Assembly (NCBI RefSeq): GCF_051903065.1
Contig: NZ_CP178438.1
Source: Escherichia coli
Lineage (GTDB): Bacteria > Pseudomonadota > Gammaproteobacteria > Enterobacterales > Enterobacteriaceae
Length of the DNA: 64,000 bases
Direction: 5' to 3' (one strand)
The stretch's first letter is position 1. Each line of letters opens with the position of its first letter. A program made the translations under genes and the position numbers. Below the pieces are notes generated by a model. The model made no database searches, was not told the origin of the DNA, and was given only the letters and a program-made list of their open reading frames with translations. Below are positions 22,870 to 42,564 of this stretch, piece after piece.

Positions 22870-23061
22870 ATTTTAAAAATTATCTGTGATATATATCAGC
22901 CAATAAAACATTTATATTGTGAATAAATTTATGATTTTCATTTGAAATTCATAATAATAAATAGAGACAATATATTCACATAAAAAATATAAATTTAAAA
23001 AAGGGTGCAGGAGACCAAACCATCACAATTCAATACGCGGGGTTTTACCCCCGCGTGGTGG

Positions 23062-23214
23062 CTACTTCTTCGATTCGTAAGCGAGAACAGCCTTAAACTC
23101 CATACCACGTTCTCTGATACTCAACTCACACAACGAGTCACCTACCATCAGCGTGAATCCCAGTACTGTACAACACAGTACGATGATTGCCACAAGGGCA
23201 TATTTTGTCAGCAT
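23062..23214 (-). CDS. Hok/Gef-family type I toxin (HokE-like small membrane peptide)
   Basis: 50-codon ORF not in the track (below size cutoff): [50 protein letters not shown]. Hok signature (TM helix, SLCE, AYE) and a GGGAGG Shine-Dalgarno 7 nt upstream. Location matches the known hokX/sokX locus between cysH and cas3. Confidence 0.75.
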
Positions 23215-27798: not shown

Positions 27799-28113
27799 GC
27801 GTCGTTATGTTCCAGTAAGCAAAGCTGTTTCTGCGCCCTGTCAGCGCCCATAAAACAGAAGAAAAGGTAAGGTTAACGGGGTGAACGGTGTGGATTAAAG
27901 ACGGGATAGCGATAACTAATAACCAAATCGACTAACCTGTTTTAGCAATAGTCTTTAACAACAAAATAGATTAACCAACCTAATGAAAAACAAATGAATT
28001 TAGCCAATCATTAAGATAAATCAGCGATTTTGCGCAACAAAGTCGTTTTAGATAATGCGAAAAAACAGCCTTTCCGGTACTCTACGGCGGTTTTATCGTC
28101 CTGTAGAGAAATT

Positions 28114-28479
28114 ATGATGTCCACCACGTTATTTAAAGATTTCACCTTCGAAGCCGCTCACCGCTTACCACACGTCCCGGAAGGGCATAAATGTGGTCGC
28201 CTGCACGGGCATTCCTTTATGGTGCGACTGGAAATTACCGGGGAAGTCGATCCGCATACGGGCTGGATTATCGATTTCGCTGAACTGAAAGCGGCGTTTA
28301 AGCCAACTTATGAGCGCCTCGATCACCATTATCTCAATGATATTCCAGGTCTGGAAAACCCGACCAGCGAAGTTTTAGCAAAATGGATTTGGGATCAGGT
28401 TAAACCCGTTGTGCCGCTGTTAAGTGCGGTGATGGTAAAAGAAACCTGCACCGCTGGTTGTATCTATCGCGGCGAATGA
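28114..28479 (+). CDS. queD: 6-carboxy-5,6,7,8-tetrahydropterin synthase
   Basis: 121-aa protein [33 protein letters not shown]...; start at ATG 28114. Confidence 0.95.
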
Positions 28480-28556
28480 TAAGAGTGTGTCGGCGGTCAA
28501 TTTCCCTTAAGTAACGCTATGTTAGGGTGTTGTGTTCAGGATATCTGGGGCATGAC

Positions 28557-29828
28557 ATGGAAGACGACTGCGACATTATTATTATTGGTGCCGGTATTGC
28601 AGGCACCGCTTGCGCGTTACGCTGCGCGCGAGCGGGTTTATCCGTTTTGTTACTGGAACGCGCTGAAATCCCCGGCAGCAAAAATCTTTCCGGCGGGCGG
28701 TTATATACCCATGCACTCGCGGAACTCCTCCCTCAGTTTCATCTGACCGCGCCTCTTGAACGACGCATCACTCACGAAAGCCTTTCCCTGTTAACGCCGG
28801 ATGGCGCAACGACGTTTTCCAGCTTACAGCCCGGCGGTGAATCCTGGAGTGTATTACGTGCACGGTTCGATCCGTGGCTGGTTGCCGAAGCCGAAAAAGA
28901 AGGTGTCGAATGTATCCCCGGAGCGACGGTGGATGCACTGTATGAAGAAAACGGCAGAGTGTGTGGTGTCATTTGTGGTGACGATATTCTCCGCGCCCGT
29001 TATGTGGTGCTGGCAGAAGGTGCCAACAGCGTCCTGGCTGAACGTCACGGATTAGTGACTCGTCCTGCTGGCGAAGCGATGGCGTTGGGGATCAAAGAAG
29101 TGCTGTCGCTGGAAACATCCGCTATTGAAGAACGTTTTCATCTGGAGAATAACGAAGGCGCAGCGTTGCTGTTCAGCGGCGGAATCTGTGATGACTTACC
29201 CGGCGGCGCATTTCTTTATACTAATCAACAAACGCTCTCGTTAGGGATTGTTTGCCCGCTCTCTTCCCTTACGCAAAGTCGTGTTCCGGCAAGCGAGCTG
29301 CTGGCTCGCTTTAAAACGCATCCGGCAGTTCGCCCGCTTATCAAAAACACGGAATCACTGGAGTATGGTGCGCATCTGGTGCCAGAAGGTGGCTTGCACA
29401 GTATGCCGGTGCAATACGCCGGTAACGGCTGGCTGCTGGTGGGCGATGCGTTGCGCAGTTGCGTCAATACCGGAATTTCTGTGCGCGGCATGGATACGGC
29501 GCTAACTGGCGCGCAGGCGGCGGCACAAACACTGATAAGCGCCTGCCAGCACTGCGAGCCGCAAAATCTGTTTCCGCTTTATCATCACAACGTAGAGCGC
29601 AGCCTGCTGTGGGATGTTCTACAGCGTTATCAGCATGTTCCGGCGCTTTTGCAACGCCCGGGATGGTACCGTACGTGGCCTGCGTTAATGCAGGATATTT
29701 CCCGCGATTTATGGGATCAGGGTGATAAACCTGTTCCACCGCTGCGCCAGTTACTCTGGCGTCATTTACGTCGTCATGGCTTGTGGCATCTGGCGGGCGA
29801 TGTTATCAGGAGTCTGCGATGTCTGTAG
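28557..29828 (+). CDS. ygcN: FixC-like FAD-dependent oxidoreductase (ETF-quinone oxidoreductase family)
   Basis: N-terminal Rossmann motif IIIIGAGIAGTACAL; start at ATG 28557 (MEDDCD...). Confidence 0.88.
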   Translation: MEDDCDIIIIGAGIAGTACALRCARAGLSVLLLERAEIPGSKNLSGGRLYTHALAELLPQFHLTAPLERRITHESLSLLTPDGATTFSSLQPGGESWSVLRARFDPWLVAEAEKEGVECIPGATVDALYEENGRVCGVICGDDILRARYVVLAEGANSVLAERHGLVTRPAGEAMALGIKEVLSLETSAIEERFHLENNEGAALLFSGGICDDLPGGAFLYTNQQTLSLGIVCPLSSLTQSRVPASELLARFKTHPAVRPLIKNTESLEYGAHLVPEGGLHSMPVQYAGNGWLLVGDALRSCVNTGISVRGMDTALTGAQAAAQTLISACQHCEPQNLFPLYHHNVERSLLWDVLQRYQHVPALLQRPGWYRTWPALMQDISRDLWDQGDKPVPPLRQLLWRHLRRHGLWHLAGDVIRSLRCL

Positions 29829-30079
29829 CCCGTAATCTCTGGCGCGCTGCTGATGCGCCGCACATTGTTCCGGCTGACTCCGTTGAGCGCCAGACGGTAC
29901 AACGGTTGATTAACGCTTGTCCGGCTGGTCTTTTTTCGCTCACACCGGGAGGTGACTTACGCGTTGATTATCACGGCTGCCTGGAGTGTGGCACCTGCCG
30001 TTTGCTGTGCGACGAATCAACACTACAACAGTGGCGCTATCCGCCTTCCGGATTCGGCATCACCTACCGTTTTGGATAA
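29819..30079 (+). CDS. ygcO: FixX-like ferredoxin
   Basis: 86-aa frame MSVARNLW... with Cys cluster (CLECGTCRLLC); overlaps ygcN 3' end. Confidence 0.8.
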   Translation: MSVARNLWRAADAPHIVPADSVERQTVQRLINACPAGLFSLTPGGDLRVDYHGCLECGTCRLLCDESTLQQWRYPPSGFGITYRFG

Positions 30080-30095
30080 ATAATAAGGATAATTT

Positions 30096-30671
30096 ATGCC
30101 CCTCTTACACCTGCTCCGCCAGAATCCGGTGATTGCTGCCGTTAAAGATAATGCCAGCCTGCAACTGGCAATCGATTCTGAATGCCAATTTATTTCCGTG
30201 TTGTACGGCAATATCTGCACCATCAGTAATATCGTTAAAAAGATTAAGAACGCCGGGAAATATGCTTTTATTCATGTTGATTTGCTGGAAGGCGCGTCAA
30301 ATAAAGAAGTCGTTATTCAGTTTTTGAAACTGGTGACCGAGGCGGACGGCATTATCAGTACCAAAGCCTCAATGTTGAAAGCGGCAAGAGCGGAAGGTTT
30401 TTTCTGTATTCATCGCCTGTTTATTGTTGATTCGATTTCGTTTCACAACATTGATAAGCAAGTTGCGCAATCGAATCCGGATTGTATTGAGATCCTGCCA
30501 GGCTGCATGCCCAAAGTGCTGGGCTGGGTGACGGAAAAAATCCGCCAACCGCTGATTGCTGGCGGGCTGGTATGCGATGAAGAAGATGCGCGTAATGCGA
30601 TTAACGCGGGTGTCGTGGCGCTTTCCACCACGAATACTGGGGTCTGGACGTTAGCGAAAAAATTGCTTTGA
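30096..30671 (+). CDS. ygcP: GlpP-family glycerol-3-phosphate-responsive antiterminator-like protein
   Basis: 191-aa ORF MPLLHLLRQNPVIAAVKDNASLQ..., GlpP-like N-terminus. Confidence 0.85.
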   Translation: MPLLHLLRQNPVIAAVKDNASLQLAIDSECQFISVLYGNICTISNIVKKIKNAGKYAFIHVDLLEGASNKEVVIQFLKLVTEADGIISTKASMLKAARAEGFFCIHRLFIVDSISFHNIDKQVAQSNPDCIEILPGCMPKVLGWVTEKIRQPLIAGGLVCDEEDARNAINAGVVALSTTNTGVWTLAKKLL

Positions 30672-30703
30672 CGGAATAATCGTAACGAATTGAATTTGTG
30701 TCA

Positions 30704-30775
30704 TTTGTAGGCTGCACGCCACATCCGACATTCAGCGCCTGATGCGACGCTTGACGCGTCTTATCAGGCCTACAA
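30704..30775. repeat. REP elements between ygcP and ygcQ
   Basis: GTAGGCTGCACGCC... and GCCTGATGCGACGCTTGACGCGTCTTATCAGGCCTAC. Confidence 0.75.
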
Positions 30776-30817
30776 GTCCCCAGGCCAGAACCGTAGGCAG
30801 GATCATCCGGCAACACG

Positions 30818-31678
30818 TTATTGGCAATCTGCGTGAATGTTTGTCACCAGTGCCTCCAGCACCACTTTCCAGTCATCAACCACGCCAACATCTGCCTGTG
30901 AAAATACCGCTGCGCTGGCGTCATGATTAATCGCCACCACAAACTTGCTATTGCATACGCCCGCCATTAACGCTGCTGCGCCAGAAGCGCCAACAACAAT
31001 ACACACCTCAGGTGCCAGCAGATGTCCGGAAATACCAATCACTTTTTCAGCATCAACGCCACCGTTCATCACTCGCGCCCGACTGTAGCCCACTTCGGCT
31101 CCCAGCTTTTCTGCCAGCATAGCGATTTCCTGGTTATCTGCCACTCCGCCCTGCCCCACCACCAGCACCCATCTGGCCTCAGCTAATGGGTCGCGAGTAA
31201 CATTTTTCAGATCCTCTGTGCTAACCAGCCAGTCGGGAAGCGCACCTGGGACTATGTTCAGTTGCTGCATACCAGAGGGCAACGTGGCATTTTTATCTGT
31301 TCCCGCCTGGCGCGCCAGGGAAAGACATAGCGGGCGTTTTTCTGTTTGCAGCGTCGCCGTTAGCGCATTTCCCCAGTGGGATTTGCGCACGCTTACGGTT
31401 GGAATATCTAACGAAGTCACCTGGCAGATGCTTGCACCATGTAAACGCCAGGCCAGCCGGGTCGACAGTTCATCGCCAAACGTTCCCGGCGGAAAGAGAA
31501 CAACGTTCGCAGGCGTTCGCTGCCACTGTTCCACCAGCGCATCCAGCACCTGTTCCACCACTACGGGCTGTGGTTCTATTTGCCAGTGCGCCAGGGTACA
31601 ACCGCTGAAATCCTGCGCCGCCAGCCAGCCCGCTAATGCGGCATTATCCTGATTTATTGTCACAATTGCGATATTCAT
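30818..31678 (-). CDS. ygcQ: Electron transfer flavoprotein alpha-subunit-like protein (FixB-like)
   Basis: Frame MNIAIVTINQDN...; start at ATG complement 31676-31678 overlapping ygcR stop (ATGA). Confidence 0.85.
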   Translation of the reverse strand: MNIAIVTINQDNAALAGWLAAQDFSGCTLAHWQIEPQPVVVEQVLDALVEQWQRTPANVVLFPPGTFGDELSTRLAWRLHGASICQVTSLDIPTVSVRKSHWGNALTATLQTEKRPLCLSLARQAGTDKNATLPSGMQQLNIVPGALPDWLVSTEDLKNVTRDPLAEARWVLVVGQGGVADNQEIAMLAEKLGAEVGYSRARVMNGGVDAEKVIGISGHLLAPEVCIVVGASGAAALMAGVCNSKFVVAINHDASAAVFSQADVGVVDDWKVVLEALVTNIHADCQ

Positions 31679-32460
31679 GGCTGCATCCTTTGGCGTAAAT
31701 AGTCCTGCCATAGCTTTTGCGCTTTTTCTGCTACCGTTTGCCCATCAATCAGCGTCGCTCCGCGTCGTTGCTCTGCTCTTGCCAGTTGCAGACACTGCAT
31801 CGCTGGCAATTCGGCAGCAACAGTTTTACGGATAATTTCCGCTTTCCCCGCAGCCATTCGCTGGCGCATTCCCGGTACTGGCAAGGCCACTTCACCGCAC
31901 TGGCGCACGGCAATCACCGCAGGCAAGCGAATCCGACAACAGCGCAGCCCATGTTCAGTACGCTGTTCGAGGGTGATAAACGGCGCGTCGAGAGTGAAAC
32001 GCTCCACCTGGGTGAAGCAGGGCCAGCCCAGCATTTCCGCCAGCAAAAATGGCGTTTGCCCATTCTGCCCTTCGCTGCTTTGGCAGCCGGTAATTATCAG
32101 ATCCAGCGGATTCTGACGCTGCCATTCGGCAATATGGCGAGCGACAAATTCCGACGCAAAGCGCAGATCTGCCGCCGTCTCCAGCAATACAGCTTCCTCA
32201 AACCCAAGAGCCATGAGATAGCGCAGCCAGTGTAACGCCCGTTCATCCCCCATGCTCAACGCGGTTAAAGACATCGGCGTACCGTTTTTTCTCTGCGCCA
32301 ACAGTAGCGCGGCGGCAGCCTGTTCATCAGCACCGAGTAAACTTCGCAGTAGCGAAACATCCGGTCCGCTATTACCCTGAGCCGCCGCCTGCCACTCTTT
32401 TTCCGCCAGCATTCCGGCATCCGGTTCGGCTTTAAACGCTAACAGAATGTTCATTCGCAC
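31675..32460 (-). CDS. ygcR: Electron transfer flavoprotein beta-subunit-like protein (FixA-like)
   Basis: 261-aa ORF M(RM)NILLAFKAEPDAG... Confidence 0.85.
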   Translation of the reverse strand: MRMNILLAFKAEPDAGMLAEKEWQAAAQGNSGPDVSLLRSLLGADEQAAAALLLAQRKNGTPMSLTALSMGDERALHWLRYLMALGFEEAVLLETAADLRFASEFVARHIAEWQRQNPLDLIITGCQSSEGQNGQTPFLLAEMLGWPCFTQVERFTLDAPFITLEQRTEHGLRCCRIRLPAVIAVRQCGEVALPVPGMRQRMAAGKAEIIRKTVAAELPAMQCLQLARAEQRRGATLIDGQTVAEKAQKLWQDYLRQRMQP

Positions 32461-33769
32461 CTCCTACATTTCCCGCCGCCACCAGCGGGAGGGCTTTGGT
32501 TTCTGGTGCCCATAGCCAGGTCACAACAAAACCAACCAACAACACTGCCGCCAGGAGCAATAAGGAGACTTGCATTCCCCACTGCGCCAGCACCCACGGC
32601 AGCAGGCCAGTACTTACCGCCGCCCCCAACCGACTCATGGCGGTGGCAAAACCGACGCCCAGCGAGCGAATGTCAGTAGGAAAACTTTCCGCAGGCAAAA
32701 TGCCCACCAGATTACTGACTGCCGAAATGGTGGTGCTGAAGAGAACAAAAAGCAGCAGCGTTAATGAACTGCCGGAAGGCAAACAGGCCATCACTACCAG
32801 CGTTGCCGCCAGCAGCAAAAAACTTCCCAGCAAAAATTTGCGATGTGCCAGCAGGTGCGTCAGAACTAATCCCAGCAGCGCGCCCACAATTAACAATGCA
32901 TTAAGCATCAGGCTGGCAGTCAGCGCATCTTCCAGACCAATAGTCTGGGCGATAGTTGGCAGCCAGGTATAAATCACAAACCATGGGATTACGAGGCAGA
33001 CAAAGAAGACGCTGTTAAACGCCGTGCGCCGCCAGTAACGCGAAGAGAACAAGGTTTTGATGTGTTTATGGGTCGCCGTTACCACTTCATCGCCCAGTAA
33101 AACATGGGGACCAAAATAGCGATGCACGATAGCGTGAGCTTCTGCAAAACGCCCCTGGCGCAGTAGCCAGCGTGGCGATTCTGGCGTTCCCCAGCGTAAT
33201 AACGTAATCAACAACGCGGGCAGAGCTGCCGATGCCAGCAGCCAGCGCCAGGCCTCCGGGCTTTCGCTAATAAAGTGATGTCCGGCAATACTTGCTAACA
33301 CATAGCCTACGGTCCACACCACGCTGAATGCGCCCAGCAAAACACCGCGATGGCGGCGCGGGGAAAATTCAGCCAGCAAGGTGTGACCTACTGAGTAATC
33401 GCCTCCCAGACCAATGCCGATCAAAATGCGCAGTCCAATAAGATGCTCTGGCGTGGTGGCAAAAAATTGCAGGAACGAAGCGAGCGTAATCAGCAAAAAG
33501 CTGAAGGTGAAGATTTTTTGCCGACCAATATGGTCGGAGATCCACCCAAGAACCAGGCTGCCAAGAAACAAACCAAGGAGCGCCGAGCCGCCGATCATTC
33601 CCGCCATAAACGGCGTCAGTTGCATGGCGGGCGTAAGTTGAATAATGGCGTAACCAATGACGCCGAGAACATAACCGTCGGTCAGGTGTGCGCCGAAAGT
33701 GAGCGCAGCAATTCGACAGTGAAAACGGTTAAGCGGTAAATCATCCATTCGCACCGGTGAAGTGTTCAT
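32432..33769 (-). CDS. ygcS: MFS-family transporter (sugar-porter-like)
   Basis: 445-aa frame from MNTSPVRMDDL... with multiple TM segments and the MFS PESPRWL motif; RBS AAGGGG upstream of ATG 33769. Confidence 0.85.
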   Translation of the reverse strand: MNTSPVRMDDLPLNRFHCRIAALTFGAHLTDGYVLGVIGYAIIQLTPAMQLTPFMAGMIGGSALLGLFLGSLVLGWISDHIGRQKIFTFSFLLITLASFLQFFATTPEHLIGLRILIGIGLGGDYSVGHTLLAEFSPRRHRGVLLGAFSVVWTVGYVLASIAGHHFISESPEAWRWLLASAALPALLITLLRWGTPESPRWLLRQGRFAEAHAIVHRYFGPHVLLGDEVVTATHKHIKTLFSSRYWRRTAFNSVFFVCLVIPWFVIYTWLPTIAQTIGLEDALTASLMLNALLIVGALLGLVLTHLLAHRKFLLGSFLLLAATLVVMACLPSGSSLTLLLFVLFSTTISAVSNLVGILPAESFPTDIRSLGVGFATAMSRLGAAVSTGLLPWVLAQWGMQVSLLLLAAVLLVGFVVTWLWAPETKALPLVAAGNVGGANEHSVSV

Positions 33770-33862
33770 CTTTACCCCTTCATTGTCCGGTAATAAGAAC
33801 GGCTTCTCGCCTGAGAAGCCGAAAAGGCAACGCCCCATCATCGCGGAACGCTGCCTGACACA

Positions 33863-35317
33863 TTATTTTTCAATCGGATAGATAGTACCCGTATTCATAA
33901 TGCCGTTAGGATCGAATTGCTTTTTCAGCCCTTCCAGCAACGCCCACGCGCTGCCGTGTTCCAGCTTGCTCCAGTGAACGCGATGTTTACCAATGCCGTG
34001 GTGGTGCACCATCGAACCGCCGAGGCGAATGGTTTCTTCGCAGATGATTTTGTTGAGCGGATTGTGGTACTTGTCGATTTCCTCTTCCGGCTTACAGTCA
34101 ACAACGTTGTAGTCATAGACGAAGTACATGTTTGTGCCGTTCTGATAGCTATGAGAGGAGTGACCGCCCAGCATAGTGATGTCGTCGGCGTGCGGGAACT
34201 CGGTACGAATACGGTTAATAACGCTTTCGTAGATTTCGTGGATGCAGCTCCAGCAGCCGGACACTTCAGTGGTAAAGCCCATGTTGCCGGTTTTGAGGAT
34301 TTGCACACGTTCGGCAGCCACTTTATCCGGTCCCCAGTTCAGGTTGTTAAACCAGGTTTCGATCAGTTTGCTGTCCACGCGCTGGCACTGCGGGTAGCGG
34401 GCAACGATTTCCGCAATCCCTTCGCCCGTCGCCTTCGCAATGCGAGGGTTACCTTCAGCCATAAAGATCAGCACACATTTTCCGTCGGCAAAATGGGTGA
34501 AGTGTTGGGTGCCATCTTCAGCGTCATACAAACGAGCGATCGACGGACGATACCCTTCCACCATGATTTCACGCAGGATGTTGAAGCCGGTTTTCATGTC
34601 TTCCAGGATATAGCCGTAGAAGAGGTTGTTTTTCGGGGTGAATTTAAAGATTTTCACTGTTACTTCAGTGATATAGCACAATGCACCTTCGTTGCCGATG
34701 ATGATGTGACGAATGTCCGGGCCAGCCGCGCGGCGTGGCACGTTTTTAATACGTGTGACGGTGCCATCAGCCAATACGGCTTCCAGACCAACGACCATAT
34801 CTTCGATTGCGCCGTAGAGTGTGGAGAACTGCCCGATACTGCGGGTTGCTACCAGGCCGCCCATCTGCGCCAGCGGCTTTGACTGCGGAGAATGCCCAGT
34901 GGTGTAACCTTTTTCACGCAACGCGTTTTCCAGCACCTCCAGCGGAACGCCACATTGCGCCGTCGCCTGCATATTCTCAATATCAATATTAATGATTTGA
35001 TTCATGGCGGAACCGTCGAGCACCACCGAGTTTTCTACAACAGTTTCCAGCCCACCTTCGGTGGCGGAAGCACCGGTACGCGGCACACCGTTAATTTTGT
35101 GCGCATTCATAAAATTCAGCACACGGGAGACTTGTTCTGTGGAACCGAGTTTTACGACCGCAGCCGGAATCGGCAAAGTATAAATACCATGAATATCCGG
35201 AAATTTACGAAAACGGTCAATACTGTTCTTCTTTAATACTGTTTCATCGGTAATTACGCGATCTGCACCAACAATTTCCTTTAGCTGGTCGACAATCGCT
35301 GCGCGAGATAAAGACAT
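33863..35317 (-). CDS. ygcU: FAD-linked oxidase (alkyl-DHAP-synthase/D-lactate-dehydrogenase fold)
   Basis: 484-aa ORF. Confidence 0.85.
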   Translation of the reverse strand: MSLSRAAIVDQLKEIVGADRVITDETVLKKNSIDRFRKFPDIHGIYTLPIPAAVVKLGSTEQVSRVLNFMNAHKINGVPRTGASATEGGLETVVENSVVLDGSAMNQIINIDIENMQATAQCGVPLEVLENALREKGYTTGHSPQSKPLAQMGGLVATRSIGQFSTLYGAIEDMVVGLEAVLADGTVTRIKNVPRRAAGPDIRHIIIGNEGALCYITEVTVKIFKFTPKNNLFYGYILEDMKTGFNILREIMVEGYRPSIARLYDAEDGTQHFTHFADGKCVLIFMAEGNPRIAKATGEGIAEIVARYPQCQRVDSKLIETWFNNLNWGPDKVAAERVQILKTGNMGFTTEVSGCWSCIHEIYESVINRIRTEFPHADDITMLGGHSSHSYQNGTNMYFVYDYNVVDCKPEEEIDKYHNPLNKIICEETIRLGGSMVHHHGIGKHRVHWSKLEHGSAWALLEGLKKQFDPNGIMNTGTIYPIEK

Positions 35318-35386
35318 AGTAATTCCTTCCTGATAATAAAAATGGAATAATCATTAATAAGAGAAAACAGAAACCACCGTTATGGG

Positions 35387-36172
35387 TTAGCGCACTAAAT
35401 AACCGCCATCAACCACTAATAAATGCCCGTTGACATAATTCGATGCCGGACTTGCGAGGAATACGGCTGCGCCCATTAAATCCTGAGTATCGCCCCAACG
35501 GTTTGCTGGAATATGATCAAGAACGCGCTGATTGGTTTCTGGATTACTGCGTGTCGCCAGCGTAATATCTGTTGCATAATAGCCAGGGGCGATACCATTT
35601 ACCTGAATATTATATTGACCTAGTTCATCACAATAAGCTTTGGTGAACCCGGCAAGAGCATGTTTAGTGGCAGAATATGCAGGTGACCATTGTCCACCTA
35701 AGTAAGAGAACAATGAACAGATATTAATGATTTTACCGCTTTTCTGCGGGATCATAATTTTTGCTGCTTCGTAGCTTAACTCAAATGCGGCGGTCAGGTT
35801 CACATCAATCATTGGATCCCAGTCGGCACGACCGAAGTCCAGCACCTTATTCAGCTTACAAATACCGGCATTGTTAACCAGAATATCGACGGTACCGAAA
35901 CGTTCGCAACAGGCGGCGATTATCTTCTGCGGCGCGCCTTCTGCGGTGATATCCACCTGCATGAAGTCCACCTCAACACCCTGTTTTTCAATCATTTCCT
36001 TTGTTTCGCCGTTATCTTTGACAAAACTTGGAATAAAGACATTTGCGCCTGCTTTGGCCAACGCCATGGCAAATGCCTGGCCTAAACCGCTATTCCCGCC
36101 GGTAACAATTGCGGTTTTACCTTTCAGGGAGAAAAAATCCATTGAGAACGCATTGAGAGATTCGATTGACAT
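35387..36172 (-). CDS. ygcW: Short-chain dehydrogenase/reductase (SDR)
   Basis: Frame MSIESLNAFSMDFFSLKGKTAIVTGGNSGLGQ... (TGxxxGxG); start at ATG complement 36170-36172. Confidence 0.85.
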   Translation of the reverse strand: MSIESLNAFSMDFFSLKGKTAIVTGGNSGLGQAFAMALAKAGANVFIPSFVKDNGETKEMIEKQGVEVDFMQVDITAEGAPQKIIAACCERFGTVDILVNNAGICKLNKVLDFGRADWDPMIDVNLTAAFELSYEAAKIMIPQKSGKIINICSLFSYLGGQWSPAYSATKHALAGFTKAYCDELGQYNIQVNGIAPGYYATDITLATRSNPETNQRVLDHIPANRWGDTQDLMGAAVFLASPASNYVNGHLLVVDGGYLVR

Positions 36173-36490
36173 AGTTAGCTCCAATTTCCGTAAGGCAAAA
36201 AAAAAGAAAGGTAACTTCCCCCGCAAGAGGGAAGTTACCTTTCTCATTATCTCTGGTAACTGGAGATAATTTTTAGCATAAGGGCATAACTGCTAATGTG
36301 ATCGTAATCACAGTGTAATATTCGTATTGTCAAATAATTTTAAAAAGCAGAAGCGTGATTACTCTCACACAACACCTCTGCTTTCCATGTTATTTATTAT
36401 TTCAATTACTAGAGACCTGAGAAAAGTAATCCACCTGAAAGGGCGGCTTACTTTTCTCTTTTTTTTGTCTATTACAAATGGGAATACGAT

Positions 36491-37768
36491 ATGCAACACA
36501 ACTCATATCGCCGTTGGATAACCCTCGCGATAATTAGTTTTAGCGGCGGCGTTAGTTTCGACCTGGCTTATTTACGTTATATTTATCAAATTCCCATGGC
36601 GAAATTTATGGGATTCAGCAATACCGAGATAGGTTTAATAATGAGTACCTTTGGTATTGCAGCTATTATTCTTTATGCCCCCAGCGGCGTTATTGCTGAT
36701 AAATTCTCACATCGCAAAATGATTACTTCCGCGATGATCATTACCGGATTACTGGGTCTGTTAATGGCAACGTATCCACCGCTGTGGGTAATGCTCTGTA
36801 TTCAGGTCGCCTTTGCGATAACGACGATTTTAATGCTGTGGTCGGTGTCGATTAAAGCCGCATCGTTGCTTGGCGATCATAGCGAGCAAGGGAAAATTAT
36901 GGGCTGGATGGAAGGGCTGCGCGGCGTCGGTGTAATGTCGCTGGCGGTGTTTACCATGTGGGTCTTTTCTCGCTTTGCACCGGATGACAGCGCTAGCCTG
37001 AAAACGGTCATAATTATCTACAGTGTGGTTTACATCTTGTTGGGGATTCTGTGCTGGTTTTTTGTTAGCGATAACAACAACCTGTGCAGTGCCAATAACG
37101 AAGAAAAACAGTCATTCCAGCTTAGCGACATCCTGGCCGTTTTGCGCATCAGCACCACCTGGTATTGCAGCATGGTGATTTTTGGCGTCTTCACCATCTA
37201 CGCCATTCTGAGTTACTCCACCAACTATCTGACCGAAATGTATGGCATGTCGCTGGTGGCGGCGAGCTACATGGGGATTGTGATCAACAAAATCTTCCGC
37301 GCGCTGTGCGGCCCACTTGGCGGCATTATCACCACCTACAGTAAAGTGAAATCCCCTACCCGCGTGATCCAAATCCTTTCCGTACTCGGCCTGCTGGCGT
37401 TAACTGCCCTGCTCGTCACGAACTCTAACCCGCAATCGGTCGCGATGGGGATTGGCCTGATTTTACTGCTGGGATTCACCTGTTACGCCTCACGCGGGCT
37501 GTACTGGGCCTGCCCTGGCGAAGCGAGAACACCGTCTTACATTATGGGCACCACGGTAGGTATTTGTTCGGTGATTGGATTCCTGCCGGATGTCTTCGTT
37601 TACCCGATTATCGGCCACTGGCAGGACACCCTGCCCGCAGCAGAAGCCTACCGCAACATGTGGCTGATGGGCATGGCGGCGCTTGCCATGGTGATTGTCT
37701 TTACCTTTTTGCTGTTCCAAAAAATTCGTACTGCTGATATCGCCCCCACAACGGCTAACAGCAAGTAA
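36491..37768 (+). CDS. yqcE: MFS-family transporter
   Basis: 425-aa polytopic membrane ORF. Confidence 0.85.
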   Translation: MQHNSYRRWITLAIISFSGGVSFDLAYLRYIYQIPMAKFMGFSNTEIGLIMSTFGIAAIILYAPSGVIADKFSHRKMITSAMIITGLLGLLMATYPPLWVMLCIQVAFAITTILMLWSVSIKAASLLGDHSEQGKIMGWMEGLRGVGVMSLAVFTMWVFSRFAPDDSASLKTVIIIYSVVYILLGILCWFFVSDNNNLCSANNEEKQSFQLSDILAVLRISTTWYCSMVIFGVFTIYAILSYSTNYLTEMYGMSLVAASYMGIVINKIFRALCGPLGGIITTYSKVKSPTRVIQILSVLGLLALTALLVTNSNPQSVAMGIGLILLLGFTCYASRGLYWACPGEARTPSYIMGTTVGICSVIGFLPDVFVYPIIGHWQDTLPAAEAYRNMWLMGMAALAMVIVFTFLLFQKIRTADIAPTTANSK

Positions 37769-37794
37769 GCCAGAAAAATTACAGGAGAAAAATC

Positions 37795-39273
37795 ATGTCG
37801 AAGAAATACATCATAGGGATTGATGGCGGAAGTCAGAGCACAAAAGTGGTGATGTACGATCTGGAAGGTAACGTGGTTTGCGAAGGCAAAGGTTTATTGC
37901 AGCCGATGCACACGCCAGATGCCGATACCGCAGAACATCCTGACGACGATTTATGGGCATCATTATGTTTTGCCGGTCACGATTTGATGAGTCAGTTTGC
38001 CGGGAATAAAGAAGATATTGTCGGTATTGGTCTGGGATCCATCCGTTGCTGCCGTGCGTTATTGAAAGCCGATGGCACGCCAGCTGCGCCATTGATTAGC
38101 TGGCAGGATGCACGCGTAACGCGTCCCTACGAACACACTAATCCTGACGTGGCATATGTCACCTCTTTTTCGGGTTATCTAACGCATCGCTTAACCGGCG
38201 AGTTTAAAGACAATATCGCCAACTATTTTGGTCAGTGGCCAGTGGATTATAAGAGCTGGGCATGGAGCGAAGATGCTGCGGTAATGGAGAAGTTTAATAT
38301 CCCTCGTCATATGCTGTTTGATGTGCAAATGCCTGGCACCGTCCTCGGACATATCACACCACAAGCCGCACTGGCGACACATTTCCCGGCAGGGCTGCCG
38401 GTTGTTTGTACCACCAGTGATAAACCGGTAGAAGCTCTGGGAGCCGGATTACTGGATGATGAAACGGCGGTGATTTCTCTTGGCACCTACATCGCGCTGA
38501 TGATGAACGGTAAAGCACTGCCGAAAGATCCGGTGGCGTACTGGCCGATTATGTCTTCTATACCGGAAACATTGCTGTATGAAGGGTACGGTATCCGTAA
38601 AGGCATGTGGACGGTGAGCTGGCTACGCGACATGTTAGGCGAGTCGTTAATTCAGGATGCCAAAGCACAGGATCTTTCACCGGAAGATTTGCTCAACAAA
38701 AAAGCTTCTTGTGTGCCGCCTGGCTGTAATGGTCTGATGACGGTGCTGGACTGGCTGACCAACCCGTGGGAACCCTACAAACGTGGGATTATGATCGGCT
38801 TTGATTCCAGCATGGATTACACATGGATATATCGTTCGATACTGGAAAGCGTGGCGCTGACGCTGAAGAACAATTACGACAATATGTGTAATGAAATGAA
38901 TCACTTTGCAAAGCATGTGATCATTACTGGCGGCGGTTCGAACAGCGATCTATTTATGCAAATTTTTGCCGACGTGTTCAACCTTCCGGCACGCCGTAAC
39001 GCCATTAACGGTTGTGCAAGTCTGGGGGCAGCGATCAATACGGCGGTAGGTCTGGGGCTATACCCGGATTACGCAACGGCTGTCGACAAAATGGTTCGCG
39101 TGAAAGATATCTTTATGCCTGTTGAGAGCAATGCCAAACGCTACGACGCGATGAATAAAGGTATTTTCAAAGCCCTAACCAAACATACTGATGTGATCCT
39201 GAAAAAATCGTATGAAGTGATGCATGGGGAATTGGGGAATGCGGATTCGATCCAGAGCTGGTCGAATGCGTAA
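37795..39273 (+). CDS. ygcE: FGGY-family carbohydrate kinase
   Basis: 492-aa ORF MSKKYIIGIDGGSQSTKVVMYD..., FGGY kinase N-terminus. Confidence 0.88.
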   Translation: MSKKYIIGIDGGSQSTKVVMYDLEGNVVCEGKGLLQPMHTPDADTAEHPDDDLWASLCFAGHDLMSQFAGNKEDIVGIGLGSIRCCRALLKADGTPAAPLISWQDARVTRPYEHTNPDVAYVTSFSGYLTHRLTGEFKDNIANYFGQWPVDYKSWAWSEDAAVMEKFNIPRHMLFDVQMPGTVLGHITPQAALATHFPAGLPVVCTTSDKPVEALGAGLLDDETAVISLGTYIALMMNGKALPKDPVAYWPIMSSIPETLLYEGYGIRKGMWTVSWLRDMLGESLIQDAKAQDLSPEDLLNKKASCVPPGCNGLMTVLDWLTNPWEPYKRGIMIGFDSSMDYTWIYRSILESVALTLKNNYDNMCNEMNHFAKHVIITGGGSNSDLFMQIFADVFNLPARRNAINGCASLGAAINTAVGLGLYPDYATAVDKMVRVKDIFMPVESNAKRYDAMNKGIFKALTKHTDVILKKSYEVMHGELGNADSIQSWSNA

Positions 39274-39319
39274 GTGAGGAAGACCGGGCGGGAAACTGCC
39301 CGGCCTGAACATACCTGAA

Positions 39320-39458
39320 TGGTTATCCCCGCTGGCGCGGGGAACATAAGTTCGACAACTTAAAAAATGATAACAAGTCCGGTTTATCCCCGCTGATGCA
39401 GGGAACATAATAAAAACTTTAACTAGTTCGGTTTATCCCTGTTTTTACAAGGAATATT
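39320..39458 (-). CRISPR. Decayed CRISPR remnant: three degenerate type I-E repeats with irregular spacing
   Basis: tGGTT-ATCCCCGCTGGCGCGGGGAACAT (39320-39347), CGGTTTATCCCCGCTGATGCAGGGAACAT (39380-39408), CGGTTTATCCCTGTTTTTACAAGGAATAT (39430-39458); intervening segments 32 and 21 nt. Confidence 0.8.
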
Positions 39459-39519
39459 AACTACACTCGATGTCTTTAGAATAAAAGACAATACGAATCG
39501 CACTTTATCAATTTTCACT

Positions 39520-40576
39520 GGCTTTGTTGAATAAATCGAACTTTTGCTGAGTTGAAGGATCAGATCACGTATCTTCCCGACAACGCAGACCGTTCCGTGG
39601 CAAAGCAAAAGTTCAAAATCACCAACTGGCCCACCTACAATAAAGCCCTCATCAACCGTGGCTCCATAACTTTCTGGCTGGATGATGAAGCTATTCAGGC
39701 CTGGTATGAGTCAGCAACACCTTCTTCACGAGGCAGACCTCAGCGCTATTCTGACCTTGCCATCACGACTGTGCTGGTCATTAAACGCGTATTCAGGCTG
39801 ACCCTGCGCGCTGCGCAGGGCTTTATTGATTCCATTTTTTCTCTGATGAACGTTCCGCTACGCTGCCCGGATTACAGCTGTGTCAGCAGGCGGGCAAAGT
39901 CGGTTAATGTCAGTTTCAAAACGCCCACCCGGGGTGAAATCGCACACCTGGTAATTGATTCCACCGGGCTGAAGGTCTTCGGTGAAGGCGAGTGGAAAGT
40001 CAAAAAGCATGGCCAGGAACGCCGCCGTATCTGGCGTAAGCTGCATCTCGCCGTTGACAGTAAAACACATGAAATCATCTGCGCTGACCTGTCGCTGAAC
40101 AACGTTACGGACTCAGAGGCCTTCCCCGGGTTAATCCGGCAAACCCACCGGAAAATCAGGTCAGCCGCCGCCGATGGCGCTTACGATACCCGGCTATGTC
40201 ACGATGAACTGCGGCGTAAGAAAATCAGCGCGCTTATCCCTCCCCGAAAAGGTGCGGGTTACTGGCCCGGTGAATATGCAGACCGTAACCGTGCAGTGGC
40301 TAATCAGCGAATGACCGGGAGTAATGCGCGGTGGAAATGGACAACAGATTACAACCGTCGCTCGATAGCGGAAACGGCGATGTACCGGGTAAAACAGCTG
40401 TTCGGGGGTTCACTGACACTGCGTGACTACGATGGTCAGGTTGCAGAGGCTATGGCCCTGGTACGAGCGCTGAACAAAATGACGAAAGCAGGTATGCCTG
40501 AAAGCGTGCGTATTGCCTGAAAACACAACCCGCTACGGGGGAGACTTACCCGAAATCTGATTTATTCAACAAAGCC
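39520..40576 (+). mobile_element. IS903-family (IS5 superfamily) insertion sequence, 1057 bp, intact, with 9-bp target site duplication
   Basis: 18-bp terminal inverted repeats GGCTTTGTTGAATAAATC at 39520-39537 and (reverse complement) 40559-40576. Direct repeat ATTTTCACT at 39511-39519 and 40577-40585. One transposase ORF spans the element. Confidence 0.93.
39597..40520 (+). CDS. IS903-family DDE transposase
   Basis: Open frame from 39552 (TTG) in the track; likely start GTG 39597, giving ~307 aa. Start assignment is uncertain. Confidence 0.85.
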   Translation: MAKQKFKITNWPTYNKALINRGSITFWLDDEAIQAWYESATPSSRGRPQRYSDLAITTVLVIKRVFRLTLRAAQGFIDSIFSLMNVPLRCPDYSCVSRRAKSVNVSFKTPTRGEIAHLVIDSTGLKVFGEGEWKVKKHGQERRRIWRKLHLAVDSKTHEIICADLSLNNVTDSEAFPGLIRQTHRKIRSAAADGAYDTRLCHDELRRKKISALIPPRKGAGYWPGEYADRNRAVANQRMTGSNARWKWTTDYNRRSIAETAMYRVKQLFGGSLTLRDYDGQVAEAMALVRALNKMTKAGMPESVRIA

Positions 40577-40976
40577 ATTTTCACTTAAAGTATGAACAGG
40601 ATATCTTTATTCATAAGAACTATTCATCAACAGCGTATAGAGGCGGTTATGTAAAACCACTCATTAGCCTCAAAACAAAGACAAATTTCCAGATTTATTA
40701 CTTAATCAATGAATAACAAGCTTAAAAAATACACTGTTATTCTAAAGAAAAAATTAACAGGCATTAATTAATATTAAAAAAATAATATATTAAAATTTCT
40801 TAACGGTTTAAGGATTATACAAATAACACTTTGATTAAATTTGATTTTTTGTATCGATAATTGTGAACTTATCTGGCATGGGGAACTATTTTGAACATGA
40901 GGTGTTACGTGGATATGTTGCTTATTACAAGTACAGCTAATATAAAAACTTGAGAAAGAGATAACGGGTTATATGG

Positions 40977-41554
40977 TGGTTTATCCCCGCTGGCGCGGGG
41001 AACTCGTACTGACGGATAAAAATAATACCTTTTGCGGCGGTTTATCCCCGCTGGCGCGGGGAACTCGTCAACGTTTTTCATGTGGGCATGAGTTGGGGCG
41101 GTTTATCCCCGCTGGCGCGGGGAACTCTATTCGGCCTCGTGCTGGTCGTGACAAAATACCGGTTTATCCCCGCTAGCGCGGGGAACTCTGGCGATATTGC
41201 CTACCGCAACAAAGAAAATACGGTTTATCCCCGCTAGCGCGGGGAACTCATCCACGAATCCAGTGCAAATGAGTTTGTTGGCGGTTTATCCCCGCTAGCG
41301 CGGGGAACTCATTGTGACTACCACCGATAACCCCGCAACCACCGGTTTATCCCCGCTAGCGCGGGGAACTCCTGCATTCGCCTGCGGTTATCAGATCGCT
41401 AAACGGTTTATCCCCGCTAGCGCGGGGAACTCGCTGCCATTACTTCCCGCCAGCGTTGCTCTGGCGGTTTATCCCCGCTAGCGCGGGGAACTCGCAGAGA
41501 ATCGTTCGATTGCCCCTACATCTTCCGGTTTATCCCCGCTGGCGCGGGGAACTC
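40977..41554 (-). CRISPR. CRISPR array 2 (type I-E): 10 repeats, 9 spacers of 32 nt
   Basis: 29-bp repeat CGGTTTATCCCCGCTGGCGCGGGGAACTC at 40977, 41038, 41099, 41160, 41221, 41282, 41343, 41404, 41465, 41526. Repeats 4-9 have CTAGCGC instead of CTGGCGC; repeat 1 starts with T. Leader on the high-coordinate side. Confidence 0.97.
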
Positions 41555-41700
41555 TCTAAACATAACCTATTATTAATTAATGATTTTTTAAGCCAGTCAC
41601 AATCTACCAACTTTACAGTATCACACAAACAACACATCCATTATGTTAAAGAGCGCTTAATCCATTGATTAAAAAGGTAAATATTTAAAATAACTCTATA
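41555..41700 (-). promoter_or_regulatory. CRISPR array 2 leader (AT-rich)
   Basis: AT-rich; contains CAATCTACCAAC about 45-58 nt from the first repeat as in leader 1, and a second similar copy AAAATCTACCAAAC further out. Confidence 0.65.
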
Positions 41701-41892
41701 CAAACTAAAATCTACCAAACTTTACCGCAATAATTTTCACTCCAACGAAAAATTAACGCCACAGAATTTGTAGAGAATGATAATGATTAGTCCAGGATGG
41801 GCAAAATGGAGGTTTTTCAGAGGCGACAAAGAATATAAATGAGTAGAAGTCTTTACAGGTTCCACCCATTTATAACGCTTATAAAAGTTTAA

Positions 41893-42564
41893 TCAGGCAA
41901 TATTTAGATATTTATGTGTTTGCATCGACAAACGCCAATTACGCGCAATGCAGATTTCAATGCACAATCGTGTGGCATCATCCTTTTGGCTAATCGGCTG
42001 CAGTGCAATGACTCGCGGTTTATCATCGGTCAGCGTTGCCAATAGTTCATCCAGTGCTTCAATATCGCGTACGCGCCCCACTGGATGCTTGATTTCGTTG
42101 GCTCGCTCCAGTGCCTGTGACAACACTTCATAGCCGCCGCGCATGTTCAGCTTTGGCGATACGGTAACCCAGGTATTCGGTGTGCAGCGTACCTCATGAG
42201 TACCACTGGTTTCGATCTGGCAGCTAAAACCGTTCTTTTCGAGCAGATCAGTCAGTGGTAGCAAATCATGAATGCAAGGCTCACCACCCGTAATCACCAC
42301 ATGCCGCGCGGTGTATCCCTGGCGACTAATGACAGCCAACAAGTCTTCACTGCTCGCCGCCCCCCACTTATCACTCTCTTTGGTCTTCGCCAGAATGCTG
42401 AAAAGGGAGACTTCCCGATCCTCAAGCTTTTCCCAGGTGTGTTTGGTGTCGCACCAGGCACAGCCAACCGGGCATCCCTGTAAACGAATAAAAATGGCGG
42501 GGACGCCGGTAAAGTAACCCTCACCTTGCAGGGTCTGGAACATCTCGTTAATCGGGTACTGCAT
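41893..42564 (-). CDS. queE: 7-carboxy-7-deazaguanine synthase (radical SAM)
   Basis: 223-aa ORF MQYPINEMFQTLQGEGYFTGVPAIFIRLQGCPVGCAWCDTK... Confidence 0.95.
   Translation of the reverse strand: MQYPINEMFQTLQGEGYFTGVPAIFIRLQGCPVGCAWCDTKHTWEKLEDREVSLFSILAKTKESDKWGAASSEDLLAVISRQGYTARHVVITGGEPCIHDLLPLTDLLEKNGFSCQIETSGTHEVRCTPNTWVTVSPKLNMRGGYEVLSQALERANEIKHPVGRVRDIEALDELLATLTDDKPRVIALQPISQKDDATRLCIEICIARNWRLSMQTHKYLNIA

Follow-up and report, generated by a model that had tools for sequence, protein, structure and literature searches.

Two terminator-overlapping leader RNAs in the Escherichia coli ygc cluster are candidate targets of the GlpP-family protein YgcP

The ygc cluster of Escherichia coli lies in the stretch of DNA analysed here, a 64-kb chromosome segment (the window) that carries cysJIH, queD, the ygc cluster, a CRISPR array and queE. 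The cluster itself was already known, and its ten genes are among the E. coli "y-genes". Our analysis indicates that this locus is probably a catabolic regulon under two layers of control, the cyclic AMP receptor protein (CRP) and antitermination by YgcP, and that it may encode a pathway with chemistry like that of alkyl-dihydroxyacetone-phosphate synthase (AGPS). What appears to be new, in the sources searched, is the leader motif and its association with YgcP, together with the AGPS-type active site and the transporters of osmolyte type.

Two leader RNAs, one on each strand, occupy the gap between the divergent genes ygcW and yqcE. A covariance model built only from Enterobacterales leaders, R1, was run on the window and on retrieved loci, and it gave exactly two sense matches in the window. 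The leaders and their parts are listed below.

36194-36268, minus strand: ygcW leader RNA motif (R1 84.6 bits; terminator scan, folding, Term-seq)
36255-36261, minus strand: 5' box of the ygcW leader, AGUUACC, followed by the loop AGAGAUAAUGAGAAA
36204-36245, minus strand: 19-bp terminator hairpin of the ygcW leader
36195-36203, minus strand: U-run of the ygcW leader
36397-36468, plus strand: yqcE leader RNA motif (R1 77 bits; folding, Term-seq)
36404-36410, plus strand: 5' box of the yqcE leader, AAUUACU, followed by the loop AGAGACCUGAGAAA
36419-36458, plus strand: terminator hairpin of the yqcE leader
36459-36466, plus strand: U-run of the yqcE leader

The terminator scan found a perfect 19-bp hairpin followed by T9, 30 nt upstream of the ygcW start codon, in a divergent promoter region (36173-36490) where no gene ends. 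On the yqcE side, an imperfect hairpin with T8 (36419-36466) lies about 25 nt before yqcE. Each U-run is oriented to its own operon, and the two are therefore not a shared bidirectional terminator. The 7-nt 5' box (AGUUACY) is complementary to the start of the terminator 5' arm (RGUAACU), so that each leader overlaps its terminator with a conserved element able to form a mutually exclusive helix, the antiterminator. The predicted folding energy was -34 kcal/mol (z=-7.2) for the ygcW leader and -22 kcal/mol (z=-4.4) for the yqcE leader, and the antiterminator hairpins folded alone gave -6.7 and -1.4 kcal/mol, respectively. A weak antiterminator hairpin set against a strong terminator makes termination the default, and a factor would be needed to hold the alternative fold. 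The two leaders share 79% mean column identity over 94 alignment columns, including the sequence upstream of the hairpins, and judged by this likeness they are paralogous. When the leaders were folded at full length (36195-36268 and 36397-36468), the AGAGA of the loop paired with the terminator U-run and lengthened the hairpin. A protein bound to AGAGA could thus weaken termination by a second route.

Term-seq of E. coli MG1655 in lysogeny broth (LB) showed RNA 3' ends at both leaders (Adams et al. 2021, PMC7815308). The end 38 nt before ygcW had 40640 reads, a Rho score of 0.50 and an intrinsic terminator score of 15.8, and that 36 nt before yqcE had 1557 reads, a Rho score of 0.61 and an intrinsic terminator score of 11.4; neither is Rho-dependent (PMC7815308). 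The sequences printed in the Term-seq tables (supplementary files 1 and 3, PMC7815308) are those of these leaders, and their "regulatory element" column is empty. The presence of 3' ends at both leaders indicates that both promoters fire and that both terminators work in vivo without inducer. In the same data a significant Rho-dependent 3' end (Rho score 3.67) lies 84 nt inside ygcN, at about window position 28640 (K-12 coordinate 2892741; PMC7815308), and ygcNOP, which encodes YgcP, may itself be limited by premature Rho termination.

The original prediction had suggested that the cluster is controlled by antitermination, which fits these results, but it had sought the leaders elsewhere. The gap between queD and ygcN (28480-28556) contains no terminator and no R1 match, and upstream of ygcQ and ygcR, where ygcQ, ygcR and ygcS overlap their neighbours, there is no terminator or motif. 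Scanning 27800-42000 against Rfam placed no curated covariance model near its gathering score, and a SurA match of 26.9 bits against a threshold of 100 bits was spurious. Leader-peptide attenuation was also considered and rejected, because the short open reading frames (ORFs) in the ygcW/yqcE gap are unconserved and the one overlapping the box starts upstream of the inferred promoter.

A scan for YgcU, taking one genome per species, gave 65 loci. Both leaders are present in all Enterobacterales loci with divergent ygcW and yqcE, and 70 distinct leaders were aligned with MAFFT (alignment A2). In these the terminator helix is 91.9% paired and seven of its 17 pairs change on both sides, whereas pairing falls to 53-65% when the terminator partners are slid. 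The helix between box and arm is 84.7% paired in the raw alignment, where the unpaired cells mostly belong to leaders with a 3-nt insertion that MAFFT had shifted; a register-free recount found six or seven of the seven box/arm pairs in 112 of 114 leaders. Pair 10-37 of this helix is G-C in 40 leaders and A-U in 19, and pair 15-32 is U-A in 38 and C-G in 18. Column 37 is unpaired with its terminator partner in 43 of the 70 leaders, yet it tracks the upstream box. This pattern is otherwise difficult to explain and indicates that the box-arm helix itself is under selection. Compensatory box/arm variants arose independently (AGTTGCC/GGCGACT, AGTTGCT/AGCGACT, AATTACT/AGTAATT and TGTTACT/AGTAACA), and the 15-nt antiterminator loop, AGAGA-N3-4-GAGAAA, is almost invariant.

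Outside the enterics, R1 gave 16 sense-oriented matches in nine loci, with E-values from 7e-11 to 2e-2. These loci belong to Vibrio, Photobacterium, Sporomusa, Clostridium, Fodinisporobacter, Salsuginibacillus, Alkalicoccus, Enterococcus canis and an uncultured Firmicute. The matches lie directly upstream of cluster operons, the first gene being that for a short-chain dehydrogenase/reductase (SDR), an FGGY kinase, a YgcU homologue, a major facilitator superfamily (MFS) transporter, a betaine/carnitine/choline transporter (BCCT) or an OpuC-type ATP-binding cassette (ABC) transporter, or a gldA-like gene, and the matches contain additional compensatory changes, such as GAGGAAAG/CUUUCCUC. When 241 million metagenome records were scanned for the exact pattern, 82 stretches were found, and each of the 80 examined lies in a ygc cluster, with ygcW or yqcE 54-97 nt downstream wherever the contig reaches. 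The motif is thus not a dispersed repeat.

Three enteric loci depart from the usual arrangement of the gap. In Limnobaculum eriocheiris (L034:3057-3186) the ygcW/yqcE gap measures only 130 bp; its one hairpin is palindromic, with A-runs and T-runs on its flanks, as might result from recombination between the two leaders, and neither 5' box, neither promoter and neither CRP site is left. Klebsiella spallanzanii and Citrobacter youngae (L006:8680-8800 and L012:8680-8800) carry an insertion of about 127 bp, judged by eye to resemble enterobacterial repetitive intergenic consensus/intergenic repeat unit (ERIC/IRU) sequences, between the yqcE terminator and the yqcE start codon, and the leader motif is intact.

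The distribution of the motif follows that of ygcP. A YgcP homologue is encoded in all nine non-enteric motif loci, and the R1 motif was found in none of the seven YgcU loci lacking ygcP within 10 kb (five Bacilli and metagenome-assembled genomes (MAGs) of a Spirochaeta and a Desulfobacterales), although absence is unproven for two of these seven, L051 and L062, whose contigs are truncated. In L055, a ygcP-less locus that was checked, an RpiR-type regulator is found instead. Residues 12-184 of YgcP match PF04309 over positions 1-173 of 173 (E 1.6e-62), and its solved relatives are "glycerol uptake operon antiterminator" proteins, PDB 3kts (E 1.2e-27) and 1vkf. In Bacillus subtilis, the promoters of glpD, glpFK and glpTQ are followed by a GlpP site and then a terminator, and GlpP with glycerol-3-phosphate disrupts this terminator in the 5' untranslated region (PMC9604022, PMC10573289). 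Family members 31-46% identical to YgcP occur in glycerol contexts, with glpF, glpK and a DAO-type glycerol-3-phosphate dehydrogenase with DUF1667, and members about 52-60% identical occur in ygcW/U/E-type clusters, where Enterococcus canis is the most divergent at 38%.

The ygc system is similar to that of B. subtilis GlpP in several respects. YgcP matches PF04309 over its full length and retains the invariant GGL and other barrel residues, the first gene is preceded in the same order by a promoter, a short leader bearing a site for the protein and an intrinsic terminator, and the ygc regulon includes a kinase of the GlpK superfamily, YgcE. It differs in its targets, which are an SDR, an AGPS-like flavoenzyme, an FGGY kinase and transporters, and none is glpF, glpK, glpD or glpT. 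The RNA consensus, GUUACY-AGAGA-N3-4-GAGAAARGUAAC, is also different, the host is proteobacterial with CRP control, and the inducer is presumably not glycerol-3-phosphate itself.

Classical GlpP leaders were taken from metagenome loci for comparison, and those linked to glpP and glycerol genes are the following.

L073:6649-6730: classical glpP-linked glycerol-gene leader
L077:1926-1995: classical glpP-linked glycerol-gene leader
L078:1030-1095 and L078:3580-3650: two classical glpP-linked glycerol-gene leaders

Four classical leaders were readable. In each, a short box can base-pair with the beginning of the terminator arm across a purine loop containing two GAGA-like repeats (GUUUC-AAGAGAUAUGAGC-GAAAC is an example), and a terminator follows. 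The best R1 match in one of them falls at the correct spot, at only 15.7 bits. From these sequences, a GAGA..GAGA architecture may be the recognition principle of the whole GlpP family, one to which no RNA family corresponds in the sources searched; we offer this as a lead and not as a result.

It might be argued that the leaders are not YgcP targets at all, and that they are a small metabolite riboswitch, or plain terminators or insulators, with YgcP acting as an enzyme. The fold of PF04309 is TIM-barrel-like (PDB 3kts, 1vkf), and the very high sequence conservation of the leaders is like that of riboswitch cores. However, the part before the terminator is only about 30 nt long and forms a 7-bp helix with a 15-nt loop, which is small for an aptamer, and Rfam has no match. 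The presence of the motif in nine of nine ygcP loci and none of seven without ygcP, the same architecture at classical GlpP loci, where GlpP is an established antiterminator, and the orientation of each U-run for its own operon also speak against this explanation, which we regard as highly unlikely.

Transcription of both leaders is likely to depend on CRP. The elements of the promoters are as follows.

36297-36312, no strand: CRP site 1, perfect, TGTGATTACGATCACA, with -41.5 geometry for the ygcW promoter
36354-36369, no strand: CRP-like site 2, CGTGATTACTCTCACA, with -41.5 geometry for the yqcE promoter; the sequence is conserved and the function is predicted
36270-36278, minus strand: putative extended -10 (TGcTAAAAA) of the ygcW promoter, placed from the CRP spacing

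The yqcE promoter has an extended -10 candidate, TGtTATTTA. By this predicted geometry, each CRP site is centred 41.5 bp from the start of transcription, which would fall 1-2 nt before the conserved leader, at 36262-36263 on the minus strand for ygcW and at 36402-36403 on the plus strand for yqcE. The perfect site in the ygcW/yqcE gap was bound by CRP in ChIP-seq (chromatin immunoprecipitation sequencing) in enterotoxigenic E. coli (PMC4287617), its in vitro Kd is approximately 1.7 nM (PMC12871828), and yqcE-ygcE is listed as Crp-activated (PMC8085971). That two mirror-image promoters of class-II type diverge from this gap is well supported.

The mechanism of regulation is then as follows. Each CRP promoter produces a leader of about 70 nt whose default fold is the intrinsic terminator, and RNA polymerase stops 36-38 nt before the first gene. 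The first seven nucleotides of the leader (AGUUACY) can pair instead with RGUAACU and form a weak hairpin with the 15-nt AGAGA..GAGAAA loop. We propose that YgcP, produced from ygcNOP and loaded with a phosphorylated intermediate of the pathway, would bind this hairpin element, hold the antiterminator and block the terminator, and transcription would then read through into ygcWUSRQ and yqcE-ygcE.

The products of the cluster are needed to understand what this switch may control. Gene coordinates were taken from the RefSeq annotation of a genome identical over 28000-39520 and offset-shifted onto the window.

28557-29828, plus strand: ygcN, a FixC/YdiS-like homologue of flavin adenine dinucleotide (FAD)-dependent electron-transfer flavoprotein (ETF):quinone oxidoreductase (NF007450 379.6 bits and FixC 362.7 bits, both below cut-off)
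29819-30079, plus strand: ygcO, FixX-like ferredoxin (RefSeq annotation and NCBIfam)
30096-30671, plus strand: ygcP, GlpP-family (PF04309) putative RNA-binding antiterminator (PF04309 match; co-occurrence with the leaders)
30818-31678, minus strand: ygcQ, divergent ETF alpha subunit (about 72 bits, far below cut-offs)
31675-32454, minus strand: ygcR, divergent ETF beta subunit (RefSeq annotation and NCBIfam)
32432-33841, minus strand: ygcS, MFS transporter of the sugar-porter, aromatic-acid, organic-cation and NiaP groups (NCBIfam; PMC8601175)
33863-35317, minus strand: ygcU, VAO/PCMH flavoenzyme with an AGPS-type active site, R262, Y398 and H438-H440 (profile and residue alignment)
35387-36172, minus strand: ygcW, SDR near KduD and gluconate 5-dehydrogenase (349.9 bits against a cut-off of 369)
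36491-37768, plus strand: yqcE, MFS transporter weakly related to the anion:cation symporter and organophosphate groups (RefSeq annotation and NCBIfam)
37795-39273, plus strand: ygcE, FGGY kinase with xylulokinase, LsrK and glycerol kinase as nearest relatives (profile searches)

All ten genes are intact at the limits first noted, and the families that had been read from the sequence (ETF/Fix, GlpP-like, MFS, FAD oxidase, SDR and FGGY) were confirmed by profile searches. The original prediction had described two divergent blocks; the ten genes stand, but they form three transcription units, ygcNOP, ygcWUSRQ and yqcE-ygcE, of which the first two are convergent and the last two divergent. Every NCBIfam match of the ygc proteins is below its curated cut-off, and thus none of the ten has an assigned equivalog. 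The genes common to almost every locus are ygcW, ygcU and ygcE, and ygcP joins them wherever the RNA motif is present. The operon order in Firmicutes is ygcP-ygcW-ygcU-ygcE, and in Enterococcus canis a GldA-type dehydrogenase takes the place of the SDR.

YgcU contains the FAD_binding_4 and FAD-oxidase_C domains of the VAO/PCMH fold. Its best solved relative is AGPS (EC 2.5.1.26; PDB 4bby, 2uuu), and its profile matches AGPS with E 5.8e-62, compared with 6e-39 for glycolate oxidase and 4e-28 for LctD. The AGPS residues R419, Y578 and His615-617, the first two marked by the mutant entries 4bc7 (R419H) and 4bca (Y578F), align with R262, Y398 and H438-H440 of YgcU, and these do not vary among 15 sequences drawn from five phyla. 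At 484 residues YgcU is shorter than AGPS (658); the alignment begins at AGPS residue 165, and YgcU is without the N-terminal region of about 160 residues. The GlcD-type metal motifs (GHxxxNxxH and S/G-E-H-G) were not found in YgcU, which has HHHG and a different upstream segment.

These residues bear on the possibility that YgcU is a D-2-hydroxy-acid dehydrogenase of the GlcD/D-lactate-dehydrogenase type that feeds ETF as LctD and D2HGDH do, with an acid sugar or hydroxy acid entering via YqcE. YgcU does match GlcD, LctD, LDHD and D2HGDH, YqcE is weakly related to galactonate-type anion:cation symporters, and ETF genes directly follow ygcU in many genomes. Nevertheless, the AGPS profile match is far stronger than those to glycolate oxidase or LctD, and YgcU has HHHG where the canonical sequence, including that of a second oxidase in the same anaerobe clusters, is SEHG, and is without GHxxxNxxH. 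The kinase would also have no obvious role, and we give this proposal very little credence.

YgcU thus shares with AGPS the invariant Arg/Tyr/His-His-His set, and the kinase and C2-type dehydrogenase encoded beside it could supply a substrate resembling dihydroxyacetone phosphate (DHAP). Unlike AGPS, YgcU is encoded in a catabolic, transporter-linked operon, often with ETF genes next to it and without lipid genes nearby, and its linkage to ETF implies a net electron transfer that AGPS does not carry out. The genomic context (transporters, a kinase and no lipid genes) argues for a catabolic reaction different from the AGPS reaction on acyl-DHAP and fatty alcohol. KduD and gluconate 5-dehydrogenase, the relatives of YgcW, oxidise the carbinol adjoining a terminal CH2OH. 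YgcW together with the FGGY kinase would accordingly give a phospho-ketone with a DHAP-like end, of the kind that AGPS enolises onto its flavin.

The transporters provide a clue to the substrate. Seven of the nine non-enteric ygcP-type clusters encode transporters of the BCCT family (Vibrio, Photobacterium, Sporomusa, Clostridium and the uncultured Firmicute) or of the OpuA/C-type ABC class with an OpuAC binding protein (Salsuginibacillus and Fodinisporobacter), and in four cases the RNA motif is directly before the transporter gene. BCCT and OpuA transporters carry quaternary-ammonium, sulfonium and related compatible solutes. Proteobacterial clusters also keep a YqcE-type MFS transporter beside the kinase, and YgcS resembles organic-cation and NiaP transporters. 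On these grounds we think the substrate more likely to be a small hydroxylated compound, onium or zwitterionic, that ends like glycerol than to be a plain sugar, and E. coli may use another member of this class. The transporters suggest an osmolyte-like glycerol or ketol derivative, and a generic polyol route is probably not what the cluster encodes.

The original prediction had envisaged a polyol or sugar-like substrate, for which the AGPS-type active site of YgcU and the BCCT/OpuA-type transporters suggest something more specific. A generic route for neutral polyols or rare sugars would consist of MFS uptake, FGGY phosphorylation, and oxidation by the SDR together with YgcU, the latter working as a plain alcohol or polyol-phosphate oxidase, with electrons passing to ETF. 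It is consistent with the nearest relatives of YgcE (xylulokinase and LsrK), of YgcW (KduD and gluconate 5-dehydrogenase) and of YgcS (sugar porters), with the RpiR/SIS-type regulators, which sense sugar phosphates, that replace ygcP in some Bacilli, and with activation by CRP, which is typical of sugar operons. The lack of aldolase, isomerase and epimerase genes in every cluster version compared, the BCCT or OpuA/C-type transporters of the seven clusters, four of them directly preceded by the motif, and the retention of specific AGPS catalytic residues do not fit such a route. Neutral sugars are not known substrates of the BCCT and OpuA families. We consider this explanation unlikely.

Other observations concern the transporters and their neighbours. 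In Vibrio hannami (L067:12752-20119) the BCCT gene is accompanied by a TauE/SafE-type exporter, three SnoaL-like genes, a sugar-type ABC transporter and a LacI regulator, a possible organosulfonate or unusual-sugar module. The sulfonate 2,3-dihydroxypropane-1-sulfonate (DHPS) was considered as a substrate because of the TauE gene by the Vibrio cluster, and was set aside because BCCT/OpuA transporters do not fit it and E. coli reportedly excretes DHPS unchanged. In Erwinia typographi and Serratia proteamaculans (L032:1332-5402 and L046:1241-5351), whose loci have no ETF genes, the ygcS homologue is in a separate operon with a homologue of formaldehyde-activating enzyme (Fae) and a YghZ/YdjG-like aldo-keto reductase. 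This operon is divergent from a LysR gene of the GcvA/choline-sulfate type, which is followed by ygcP, and it has no leader motif. Overexpression of YgcS aids production of nicotinamide mononucleotide (PMC8601175), and ygcU was increased 1.69-fold by D-serine, without phenotype. A mention of "ygcO" in a review of the PTS-Ntr phosphotransferase system is a misprint for ycgO.

ETF-mediated disposal of electrons had been proposed as part of the pathway. The ETF/Fix genes are indeed present in E. coli, but they are variable or absent elsewhere and are not a core feature. Most of the length of each protein is matched, at scores well below the cut-offs (EtfA 72.5 against 240, EtfB 44 against 350 and FixC 362.7 against 610). 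Where the core proteins are about 90% identical to those of E. coli, YgcQ, YgcR, YgcO and YgcN are only 40-60% identical. The loci of Erwinia, Pantoea, Izhakiella, some Serratia and the aerobic Bacilli have no ETF/FixCX genes, and in Vibrio, Photobacterium, Clostridium, Sporomusa, Spirochaeta and Desulfobacterales a gene pair for EtfB and EtfA comes immediately after ygcU. ETF genes are an optional extra of the cluster.

This module is similar to FixABCX, which accompanies caiTABCDE, and to YdiQRST. YgcN, YgcO, YgcQ and YgcR are paralogues of FixC, FixX, FixB and FixA, a dedicated ETF chain is attached to one catabolic cluster, and homologous ygc clusters of other phyla use BCCT, the family of CaiT. 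In the ygc cluster, however, the partner enzyme is a VAO-type flavoprotein and not an acyl-CoA dehydrogenase, CoA-transferase and CoA-ligase genes are lacking, and the ETF subunits are so divergent that they fall below all cut-offs. Anaerobe clusters contain in addition an LctBCD-like module, in which a second FAD oxidase with GHxxxNxxH and SEHG is followed by EtfB and a ferredoxin-domain EtfA.

L064:13233-16789: second-oxidase module
L069:14954-16495: second-oxidase module
L070:422-3909: second-oxidase module
L071:14803-18207: second-oxidase module

The likeness to LctBCD complexes is restricted to these anaerobic versions; E. coli has no second module and YgcU itself is not of LctD type. The second oxidase suggests that a D-2-hydroxy acid is formed downstream in the pathway.

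Electrons could also run the other way, with ETF/FixCX delivering low-potential electrons to YgcU, which would then reduce the substrate and act as an anaerobic electron sink. The paralogy of YgcN/O/Q/R to FixC/X/B/A and the second, ferredoxin-domain ETF of the anaerobes accord with this, and fixABCX is reportedly required for anaerobic carnitine reduction in E. coli. On the other hand, the core pathway occurs without ETF genes in aerobic Bacilli, Erwinia and Pantoea, and reverse flow seems very unlikely to us.

The pathway that we favour, AGPS-like and catabolic, might then proceed in five steps. The substrate would be taken up by YqcE and/or YgcS, or by BCCT/OpuA-type transporters in other phyla. 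YgcW would oxidise the carbinol beside a terminal CH2OH, and YgcE would phosphorylate the terminal hydroxyl to give a phospho-ketone resembling 1-substituted DHAP. YgcU would enolise the carbon alpha to the keto group onto its flavin, and would either expel the substituent and release DHAP or oxidise that carbon. Where the genes exist, electrons would pass to YgcR/YgcQ (ETF), then to YgcN/YgcO and finally to quinone.

A bolder version can be formulated for both halves of this proposal. YgcP and its leaders would be the first defined RNA target of the GlpP family beyond the glycerol regulon and in Proteobacteria, with the GAGA..GAGA loop as a family-wide recognition code. The enzymes would perform catabolic AGPS chemistry in which import, C2 oxidation and phosphorylation precede cleavage of C1-X, and YgcU would split the C1-X bond of a 1-substituted glycerol or related diol bearing an onium or zwitterionic group, via a flavin N5 adduct, and yield DHAP. 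Candidate substrates would be glyceryl-trimethylhomoserine (a deacylated betaine lipid), glycerophosphocholine-like diesters and (2,3-dihydroxypropyl)trimethylammonium. This version is speculative, and we consider it distinctly unlikely.

Several points weigh against a regulon controlled by YgcP and CRP with an AGPS-like pathway. On the side of regulation, the yqcE antiterminator hairpin is very weak and no better than that of shuffled sequence, the shuffle controls of the covariation do not correct for phylogeny, and the ygcP-less set includes the two truncated contigs. The TIM-barrel-like fold of PF04309 means that YgcP could in principle be an enzyme. The transcription starts in E. coli are those expected from CRP spacing, and a start downstream of the box would preclude the antiterminator. 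On the side of the pathway, AGPS chemistry is redox-neutral overall, which is awkward with the tight ygcU-etfB-etfA linkage in many genomes. The inference from transporters comes from other phyla, and E. coli has MFS transporters instead. The literature searched assigned the ygc cluster no substrate, as the original prediction had also held.

The leader motif is a conserved cis-element that is missing from Rfam and carries no annotation in the Term-seq tables, and premature termination at it has already been seen in vivo. Fusing a leader to a reporter would therefore allow the inducer to be screened for directly. Should YgcP bind leader RNA, riboregulation of the GlpP type would acquire a sequence code and a second regulon, and would extend to Gram-negative bacteria. 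The AGPS-type site of a catabolic enzyme linked to transporters is a hint of new flavin chemistry, the cleavage of C-O, C-N or C-S bonds beside a DHAP-like ketone, and the link to BCCT/OpuA is a hint that gut, marine and saline habitats may offer an osmolyte-like nutrient not yet recognised.

The cluster had also been suggested to be of accessory origin, which its prevalence, synteny and GC content do not support. The ygc region (28000-40000) is present at 80% coverage or more in 5058 of 5426 complete E. coli genomes (approximately 93%), and its GC content is ordinary. The queD-ygc synteny is kept in Escherichia, Citrobacter, Klebsiella, Enterobacter, Raoultella, Pluralibacter, Yokenella, Cedecea and Buttiauxella. 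The flanking CRISPR relics, repetitive extragenic palindromic (REP) elements and insertion sequence (IS) on which that suggestion had leaned are real, at 30700-30815 and 39317-41554.

30700-30815, no strand: palindromes like REP elements or bacterial interspersed mosaic elements (BIMEs) in the convergent ygcP/ygcQ gap (by eye; weak naRNA4 match)
39317-39457: three degenerate CRISPR repeats on the ygcE side
39552-40520: ORF of an IS5-family transposase
40975-41554: 10-repeat I-E-type CRISPR array with a 61-nt period on the queE side

The IS5-family element interrupts the type I-E CRISPR array that lies between ygcE and queE. The window is 100% identical to one complete E. coli genome over 28000-39520, and a closely related genome without the IS parts from the window sequence at 39520. 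In the closest genome, cas3 and a hok/gef toxin gene lie just past cysH (L001:1-1215; window approximately 22000-23200), which places the cys-queD-ygc block between the cas genes and the CRISPR array.

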